Origin: Candidatus Heimdallarchaeota archaeon
Lineage (GTDB): Archaea; Asgardarchaeota; Heimdallarchaeia; JABLTI01
Assembly: GCA_019056785.1 (NCBI GenBank)
Contig: DXJV01000095.1
Location: forward strand, 1-56,099
Length of the DNA stretch: 56,099 nucleotides
Direction: 5' to 3'
Shown here: positions 16,079 through 16,660 of the stretch, in pieces
How positions within the stretch are numbered: position 1 is the first letter of the stretch
Layout: every line of letters begins with the position of its first letter
Made by a program: the position numbers and the translations under genes
The notes under the pieces: generated by a model
Told to the model about the DNA's origin: nothing
Databases searched by the model: none
The model's input: the letters and a program-made list of their open reading frames with translations, nothing else

Positions 16079-16660
16079 ATGACTGATCAAGGACAAATGA
16101 AAGCAATAAATGCAATACTAAAACTTGTGCTACTGGGAGACGGAGCAGTGGGAAAAACAACACTAAGAAGAAGATTCTTAGGAGAAGGATTCAAAGCAGG
16201 ATATTCAGCAACAATAGGAGCAGACTTTGCAATAAAAAGAATAAATTTAGAAAATTATAGACTCACATTTCAAATATGGGACTTGGCAGGACAACAGAGA
16301 TTTGCGGCCGTACGAGAGTTATATTATCGCGGAAGTCGTGGTGCTCTCCTTGTTTTTGATGTGACCAATCCCAGTTCATTTAACAACCTCCCTCACTGGC
16401 TGGAGGAATTGTGGAAGAAGGCCGGCCGTGTCCCGATGATTTTATGCGGCAATAAGATCGACCTTCGCTCTGAGGTCCCAAAGAGTATTCCGCCTGAGCT
16501 GGGTCAGGAATATGCTCGCCGTTTGAGTGAAGCTCTCGGTTATGAGGTTCCCTACATTGAAACCAGTGCCAAGACCGGCGAGAAGGTTAATGAGGCATTC
16601 TTTTTACTCGGCTTGAGCATTATTCGTTCAGTCAAACAACCAAAGACCATTCTCGAGTGA
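16079..16660 (+). CDS. Rab-like small GTPase
   Basis: GDGAVGKTT, TIGADF, WDLAGQQRF, GNKID, ETSAKTG. Confidence 0.95.
   Translation: MTDQGQMKAINAILKLVLLGDGAVGKTTLRRRFLGEGFKAGYSATIGADFAIKRINLENYRLTFQIWDLAGQQRFAAVRELYYRGSRGALLVFDVTNPSSFNNLPHWLEELWKKAGRVPMILCGNKIDLRSEVPKSIPPELGQEYARRLSEALGYEVPYIETSAKTGEKVNEAFFLLGLSIIRSVKQPKTILE

Follow-up and report, generated by a model that had tools for sequence, protein, structure and literature searches.

Kilobase-scale, strand-polar silent-site skew meets at a focus inside a Rab-like GTPase gene of a Heimdall-group archaeon

What makes synonymous codon usage reverse in the middle of a single, intact gene? The question is raised by a gene for a Rab-like small GTPase, here called Rab1 (16079..16660, plus strand), on a 56,099-nt contig of Candidatus Heimdallarchaeota archaeon (GCA_019056785.1, DXJV01000095.1; the whole contig is referred to as the window). 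Up to about position 16303, Gly (9/9 GGA), Ala (8/8 GCA), Arg (6/6 AGA), Ile (6/6 ATA) and Lys (5/5 AAA) are encoded exclusively by A-ending codons, whereas beyond it GGA accounts for 1/8, GCA for 1/8, AGA for 0/8 and ATA for 0/7 of the respective codons, and AAG for 7/8 of the Lys codons. A recount confirmed exactly these numbers, which the original prediction had given together with two readings, a mutational skew focus or a recombinant between Rab paralogs. The former was borne out, as a real AT-skew jump exists at the DNA level and is located to about 35 nt. We tentatively propose, with somewhat less than even confidence, that this Heimdall-group archaeon has a site-anchored, two-armed and strand-polar form of hypermutation, which depletes A on the outgoing strand over 0.4-5 kb, saturates silent sites, breaks genes and acquires new anchors within one species.

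Each half of Rab1 is abnormal relative to the genome, in opposite directions. Third codon positions carry A at a frequency of 0.667 over codons 1-75 and of 0.151 over codons 76-193, compared with 0.31 in the long open reading frames (ORFs) of the genome; the corresponding values for T are 0.147, 0.336 and 0.34, and the G+C content at third positions (GC3) is 0.19, 0.51 and 0.35 (median). When synonymous codons were permuted within amino-acid classes, none of 20,000 shuffles matched the observed flip (1.14; best shuffle, 0.89; p < 5e-5). Among 2,253 ORFs, Rab1 ranks fourth in the within-gene flip statistic, with the best split after codon 81. A gene-blind scan for AT-skew jumps over the whole 2.87 Mb genome found a local maximum at C25:16300, and a scan of third positions only placed a jump of 1.34 at 16321-16324, the seventh among 13 positive jumps above 1.2. 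Such third-position scans replaced a hidden Markov model segmentation on all A/T positions, which was dropped as too noisy, its signal being driven by amino-acid composition such as that of T-rich membrane segments.

Within the gene, three parts can be distinguished. The N-part (16079..16300, codons 1-74, plus strand) is A-ending and T-avoiding, with four-fold degenerate sites of A25 C1 G3 T2. It is followed by a transition zone of 11 codons with mixed third positions (16301..16333), which we call the focus and which contains GCGGCCG, CGTACG and TTATATTAT. The C-part (16334..16660, plus strand) uses the A-avoiding codons AAG, GAG and NNC/NNT up to the end of the gene, with four-fold sites of A5 C22 G5 T18 and purine-only sites of A6:G15. 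The switch had been predicted to occur within a few codons; it is real and narrowly located, but it takes the form of this mixed zone and is not a single-codon event. To the right of the focus, rare G+C-rich palindromes form a cluster, with CGGCCG and CGTACG at 16304-16315 and GGCCGGCC near 16422-16429; the relatives read GCT GCT GTC AGA at the place of the first two.

The skew is not confined to Rab1. Flanking skew was measured on third codon positions and expressed as plus strand. To the left, an arm with sharp edges on both sides (13415..16300) is A-rich and T-poor on the plus strand at silent sites regardless of the coding strand, with an AT skew mostly between +0.45 and +0.82 (13415-16270; dips to +0.14 and +0.27) and four-fold counts of A196 C29 G69 T37. 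To the right of the switch, the skew is -0.11 and then -0.58 across 16273-16570. Outside the two arms, which measure 2.9 kb and 0.36 kb, composition is neutral, with the skew at about 0 left of 13412 and beyond 16.7 kb. The plus-strand bias of the left arm spans three minus-strand genes, a spacer and the N-part of Rab1, which shows that it belongs to the DNA segment and not to a gene or a reading direction; it does not depend on expression level either. Rab1 simply straddles the right edge of this segment. The original prediction had also excluded transcription direction as the cause. This held for the transcription of Rab1 itself, since the three minus-strand genes and the left spacer share the plus-strand bias, but it does not extend to cryptic internal or antisense transcription, against which other grounds are given below.

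The divergent spacer between Rab1 and an SDR/epimerase gene (15790..16078, about 290 bp) is almost pure purine on the plus strand, with an AT skew of 0.54-0.58 and many runs of A6-A8, which the minus strand reads as T6-T8. In the SDR/epimerase gene (14784..15789, minus strand), the coding strand is T-rich, with a third-position AT skew of the coding strand (coding AT3) of -0.65, and the gene appears as two overlapping ORFs. Within 14784-15921 on the minus strand, its frameshift is a 1-nt indel at 15253 that is the same in the 99.8%- and 97%-identical strain contigs where called (L038, L039 and L042-L044), whereas the gene is intact, with 333 aa, in the 96% strains (L040 and L041). Judging from these contigs, the gene is a pseudogene that is polymorphic among strains, and it lies where the skew arm is strongest. 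Next to it lies a Rab-like paralog, here called Rab2 (14021..14593, minus strand), which consists wholly of T/C-ending codons and whose species-specific replacements (for example, I to V, M to L, K to R and Y to F) bring a net change of -6 A at codon positions 1-2. The arm closes with a gene for an OST3/OST6-like membrane protein (13373..13876, minus strand), stopping at the 3' end of that gene. The SDR frameshift and the Rab2 replacements indicate that the skew pressure extends past silent sites.

Rab1, on the other hand, has no species-specific amino-acid replacement relative to its orthologs, so only its codons were changed. Its protein is intact, as had been predicted: the ORF of 193 aa matches the Pfam Ras profile across the whole G domain (PF00071, E 4.8e-48, residues 15-178), and its translation contains the motifs G1 (GDGAVGKT), G3 (WDLAGQ), G4 (NKID) and G5 (SAK), with WDLAGQQRF at residues 67-75. 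The C-terminal tail, KQPKTILE, has no Cys, that is, it lacks the prenylation hallmark of eukaryotic Rab proteins; Asgard small GTPases are typically without this C-terminal Cys motif. "Rab-like" would therefore be a safer label than "Rab" for the product predicted from this sequence.

An exact-protein look-up found at least 14 contigs with the Rab1 junction, including one of 442 kb. Those listed, from JGI, ENA, Logan and NCBI, all had the same gene order and an identical Rab1 protein, and they came from at least seven different samples and assemblers. Strain contigs with 99.8%, 97.4%, 96.2% and 94.3% identity to the window were all flipped, their in-gene differences were all synonymous, and strain-level variants occurred on both sides of the junction in independent contigs. 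Of the 17 synonymous differences from the 96% strain, 12 fall within the initial 225 nt (Fisher test, p 0.0096), which suggests that the local substitution rate in the N-half of Rab1 is possibly raised.

Outside this species, the flip disappears. Orthologs of Rab1 with 94-98% aa identity were found in ten congeners and in the sister genus, and all of them show an ordinary mix of A and T at third positions from end to end. Five further orthologs on metagenome contigs were unflipped, and one 99%-identical contig, apparently of the same species, was flipped. The original prediction had asked whether orthologs in related genomes flip at the same codon; none of them flips at all. In four congeners, no skew above 0.32 was found in the syntenic region. 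As these close orthologs are unflipped, the comparison places the origin of the focus in this species-level lineage, after its split from the congeners and, as far as the strain sequences indicate, before the split of the 94-96% strains.

Gene order at the locus also differs from that of the relatives. In every relative examined, Rab1, Rab2 and the OST3-like gene lie in tandem on one strand, with Rab2 directly downstream of Rab1; only in this species is Rab1 inverted relative to Rab2, with the SDR gene in between. A single inversion of the segment comprising the SDR gene, the spacer and Rab1 (about 14.7-16.7 kb) would yield the present order. The same inversion would turn two arms of about 1.6 kb into the present 2.9 and 0.36 kb, and the focus would stay inside Rab1, because the skew pattern is symmetric under reverse complementation. 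Between Rab2 and the gene at 26069-27883 (14.6-26 kb of the window) lies a variable island, filled differently in each congener examined (L031-L037). In this species it comprises the SDR gene, a pair of surface-protein-like genes, genes for a solute-binding protein and a tRNA, and decayed genes.

The Rab1 focus has counterparts elsewhere in the genome and displays the features of the class, namely a sharp silent-site jump from A-rich to T-rich, kilobase-scale arms and independence of gene strand. All 13 third-position jumps above 1.2 have this polarity on the plus strand, and none of the opposite sign reached 1.2 anywhere in the genome; at the foci, silent-site AT skew reaches +/-0.95. The first rank in the third-position scan is held by the start of the EF-1alpha gene, on a different contig (jump 1.68). 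The most extreme within-gene flip of the genome lies in the PPDK gene (G000:C16:1202-3233, L048), which changes at about codon 799 from A50/T1 to A5/T32 per 60 sites; in congeners, a weaker flip occurs at the corresponding place, and the gene of G016, from another family, has an A-rich 3' half (+0.5 to +0.8) and no flip. A ClC channel gene flips at codon 170, and this flip is absent in its three orthologs. The absence of the ClC focus from its orthologs and the weak sharing of the PPDK focus suggest that foci turn over between the species and the genus scale. The EF-2 gene (G000:C49:3405, L049) starts exactly at a focus and has only 1-2 third-position A per 60 codons in its first 700 nt or so; its skew fades by about 1.4 kb within a gene of 2.2 kb, and two unannotated genes upstream are A-rich. 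The start of a ubiquitin-E2-like gene is another focus, as is an intron-bearing tRNA in the window (21711-21816, plus strand, Rfam 48 bits; focus at 21.76 kb, third-position jump 1.45). ARAGORN misses this tRNA. Two further jumps (G000:C58:12578 and C70:39728) lie in apparently paralogous sequences that have ...GTAAGAAGTACAATG... in common at the switch, and the EF-1alpha focus bears the reverse complement of AAGTACAATG, a match that is not significant after multiple testing.

The mutational signature was obtained by pooling six foci and classing silent sites by what selection allows, always on the strand that runs 5' to 3' away from the focus (the away strand). At purine-only sites, the A:G ratio was 35:65 and 38:62 in the arms against a genome baseline of 70:30, whereas at pyrimidine-only sites the T:C ratio (72:28 and 66:34) was at its baseline of 70:30. 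Four-fold sites contained 46-61% T, 24-30% C, 9-17% G and 6-7% A, compared with 31% T, 18% C, 18% G and 33% A at baseline. On the outgoing strand the process strips A and, less strongly, G, by transitions as well as transversions, and it leaves the balance of C and T unchanged. The baseline T:C ratio at pyrimidine-only sites ruled out deamination of cytosine, to which replication and transcription skews are classically traced.

Taken together, the sequence patterns point, with close to an even chance in our estimation, to a recurrent DNA transaction that is anchored at the focus and runs outward on both sides. To the left of the focus (13.4-16.3 kb) the minus strand, and to the right (16.33-16.66 kb) the plus strand, would be driven to lose A and gain T, so that in each arm the affected strand would be the one running 5' to 3' away from the focus. 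The transaction would start at the focus and proceed outward over about 0.4-3 kb on each side. It could consist of short-tract DNA synthesis primed where a nick, break or initiation event recurs, or of single-stranded exposure of the away strand; on the outgoing strand, A might be incorporated too rarely or be damaged (A to G and A to T), and open, promoter-proximal DNA may favor the process. In the highly constrained GTPase, purifying selection would limit the changes to silent sites, which would explain why the Rab1 protein stayed intact and only its codon choice flipped.

Several observations weigh against such an outward-running transaction. No enzyme, nick site or initiator was identified for the foci, and no motif was common to 12 of them (best 6-mer, p 6.5e-5 over 1,483 tests, with two of its carrier loci paralogous-looking); after correction for multiple testing, no k-mer was left. 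The foci are linked to promoters (EF-1alpha, EF-2, the ubiquitin-E2-like gene and the tRNA): 20 of the top 30 lie within 300 nt of an ORF start, compared with an expected 29% (p 2.7e-5). In addition, both Rab1 arms break off abruptly where genes converge, at about 13.4 and 16.7 kb, as a transcription unit would, whereas a synthesis tract gives no obvious reason for it. Finally, strain divergence is a mosaic of recombination patches, which makes the raised divergence of the N-half weak evidence for a mutation rate, and the strains form just two clades at the locus (L045 equals L041, and L042 approximates the window), too few for substitutions to be polarised.

Among the rival explanations, a bidirectional promoter at the focus could cause transcription-associated mutational asymmetry, in which case a minus-strand transcript would begin inside Rab1; we regard this as unlikely, although several observations fit it. 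The loss of A (A to G and A to T) without asymmetry of C to T is as reported for the non-transcribed strand (PMC2927911), and bidirectional archaeal promoters are a topic of PMC6640164. Foci cluster at gene 5' ends, and those of EF-1alpha, EF-2 and E2 coincide with start codons, the gene itself forming the A-poor sense arm; both Rab1 arms terminate at convergent gene ends; and the TATA-like TTATATTAT lies inside the transition zone, about 25 nt from its left edge. This 9-mer, however, also occurs in the unflipped G001 and G011 orthologs, and the TATA box was rejected as the determinant of the focus on that ground. Expression alone cannot be the cause either, because genes whose identity implies high expression are unskewed: the large ribosomal-protein operon (14 kb, G000:C49:29805-44146) and both thermosome genes (C80:10123-11766 and C83:15309-17204) have an ordinary coding AT3 of -0.14 to +0.27, and expression-driven mutagenesis was accordingly discarded as a general cause. 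Nor is there a general effect of gene ends, as genome-wide meta-profiles at ORF starts and ends gave skews of at most 0.1. In archaea, tracts of T6-T8 signal termination. Roughly half of the arms run antisense to their genes and bear such terminator-like tracts on the away strand, the presumed RNA sense, from 40-400 nt off the focus (eleven in or beside the Rab1/SDR spacer), yet their skew continues for 1.5-3 kb, which speaks against long antisense transcripts. In EF-2 and ClC, the skew decays within about 1.4 kb, inside genes of 2.2-2.4 kb. The lack of a motif common to the foci also speaks against a link to transcription. The absence of T6 or longer runs from sense arms, while antisense arms are full of them, and the extreme polypurine tract of the spacer could instead reflect selection for a strand devoid of T, and so of terminators, or made of purines alone, or else for an RNA or DNA structure near the focus. 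We consider selection highly improbable, since the skew is alike over silent sites of both strands, spacers and a gene that is frameshifted in some strains, is absent at orthologous loci with the same proteins, and has shifted the amino-acid content of Rab2. A search of the window with Rfam returned only the tRNA at 21711-21816 and sub-threshold noise, with no family or conserved structure at the Rab1 focus; repeat and cruciform searches there found no more than purine/pyrimidine matches of low complexity and the diverged homology of Rab1 and Rab2, and a scan for bacterial-type promoters and terminators gave nothing above shuffles.

Gene conversion or chimerism among Rab paralogs had been the alternative in the original prediction. 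More broadly, a recombinant gene could have halves from different sources joined at G3 by paralog conversion, by crossover between inverted duplicates or by import from a lineage with other codon usage. The switch indeed falls immediately past WDLAGQQRF, an inverted paralog lies 1.5 kb away, Rab1 itself is inverted in this species within a variable island, and the strains are recombination mosaics. Half-gene trees, which the prediction had named as a check, nevertheless turned out alike. FastTree trees of residues 1-75 and 76-193, built with 11 Ras-family hits from the same genome (query and Rab2 among them) together with orthologs of Rab1 and Rab2 and with outgroups, placed both halves inside the Rab1 ortholog clade, with Rab1 branch lengths of at most 0.01 and supports of 0.99 and 0.97 for the separation of the Rab1 clade from the paralogs. 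In sliding windows of 20 codons, the nucleotide identity of Rab1 and Rab2 was 33-73%, without a conversion tract, and the remaining paralogs of the genome share at most 43% aa identity with Rab1. Third-position identity to the ten orthologs (0.36-0.54) is equally saturated in both halves, neither of which is nearer to any congener, and import of one half from a sampled congener was thereby ruled out. Moreover, the left regime runs for 2.9 kb through conserved syntenic genes, and a flip of the same single sign recurs in the unrelated single-copy genes PPDK, ClC and EF-2, a polarity that a junction would not impose; a recombinant origin is therefore scarcely credible. An assembly or binning chimera or a sequencing artefact might be suspected in an 82%-complete metagenome assembly of 102 contigs, but the junction shared by the independent contigs described above ruled out an assembly chimera, and errors would not respect silent sites, to which the changes in Rab1 are limited; an artefact has a practically negligible probability. 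The probability that remains belongs to explanations outside those considered here.

Composition switches are usually read as replication origins or as weak footprints of transcription. The switch in Rab1 is near saturation, kilobase-scale, of the age of a species and located in an essential-looking gene, which makes it a natural experiment on the birth of a local mutation regime. What Rab1 adds is proof from independent assemblies, the origin of a focus within one species, a signature of A loss and two arguments against a simple expression-driven cause. Should the proposed hypermutation be real and promoter-proximal, prokaryotes would have an equivalent of the mutational asymmetry and hypermutation centered on eukaryotic transcription start sites; should it be real and primed by synthesis, the foci would be fixed places at which short-tract replication or repair begins in the archaea most closely related to eukaryotes. 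The foci offer a testable handle on the anchoring of DNA synthesis, breakage or transcription in an Asgard archaeon. They are also a warning that position can set codon usage, GC3 and even amino-acid content, and may mislead transfer tests, expression predictors and nucleotide phylogenies.

Literature searches on skew foci in Asgard and other archaea found no description of such foci, and known systems resemble them in part. Mosaics produced by gene conversion between paralogs share an abrupt nucleotide change within an intact ORF, beside a conserved motif, but here the two halves of Rab1 have their orthologs in one and the same gene, and there is no donor tract. The skew switch at bacterial and archaeal replication origins shares the sharp sign change at a point, the symmetry under reverse complementation, the independence of gene orientation and the T enrichment of the leaving strand. 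It differs in that the arms here are 0.4-5 kb and not replichore-long, at least 13 points occur in 2.9 Mb, the Rab1 focus lies inside a coding sequence, the GC skew is minor with C/T at baseline, and the magnitude is far larger (AT skew to +/-0.95). An Orc1/Cdc6 origin has repeated origin recognition boxes (ORB) on either side of an intergenic, A+T-rich unwinding element. The Rab1 focus lies within the gene and has no flanking repeat family, and no replichore-long change was seen, as composition is neutral beyond the arms of 2.9 and 0.36 kb.

Mammalian strand skews amount to a few per cent, whereas those described here are near saturation, occur at only about a dozen loci, leave other presumed highly expressed genes unaffected, and form arms that disregard gene orientation and terminator-like tracts. 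In mammals, an excess of A to G and A to T has been reported along the non-transcribed strand in introns and immunoglobulin (Ig) loci (PMC2927911), as have bidirectional asymmetries extending from CpG islands and asymmetries of complementary rates around presumed replication origins (PMC2817419). Common to these and to the archaeal foci are a point-centered and bidirectional layout, the excess of A to G and A to T on one strand, and the association with gene 5' ends. Compared with somatic hypermutation of Ig genes, in which AID is followed by error-prone patch synthesis, the process proposed here is germline and evolutionary, shows no C-targeted phase, has no identified deaminase and forms two mirror-image arms. 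The domain of Ig hypermutation spans 1-2 kb and is anchored near a start site. What the two have in common is a targeted domain and A-biased mutation on one strand, which in the Ig loci belongs to the second phase (PMC2927911).

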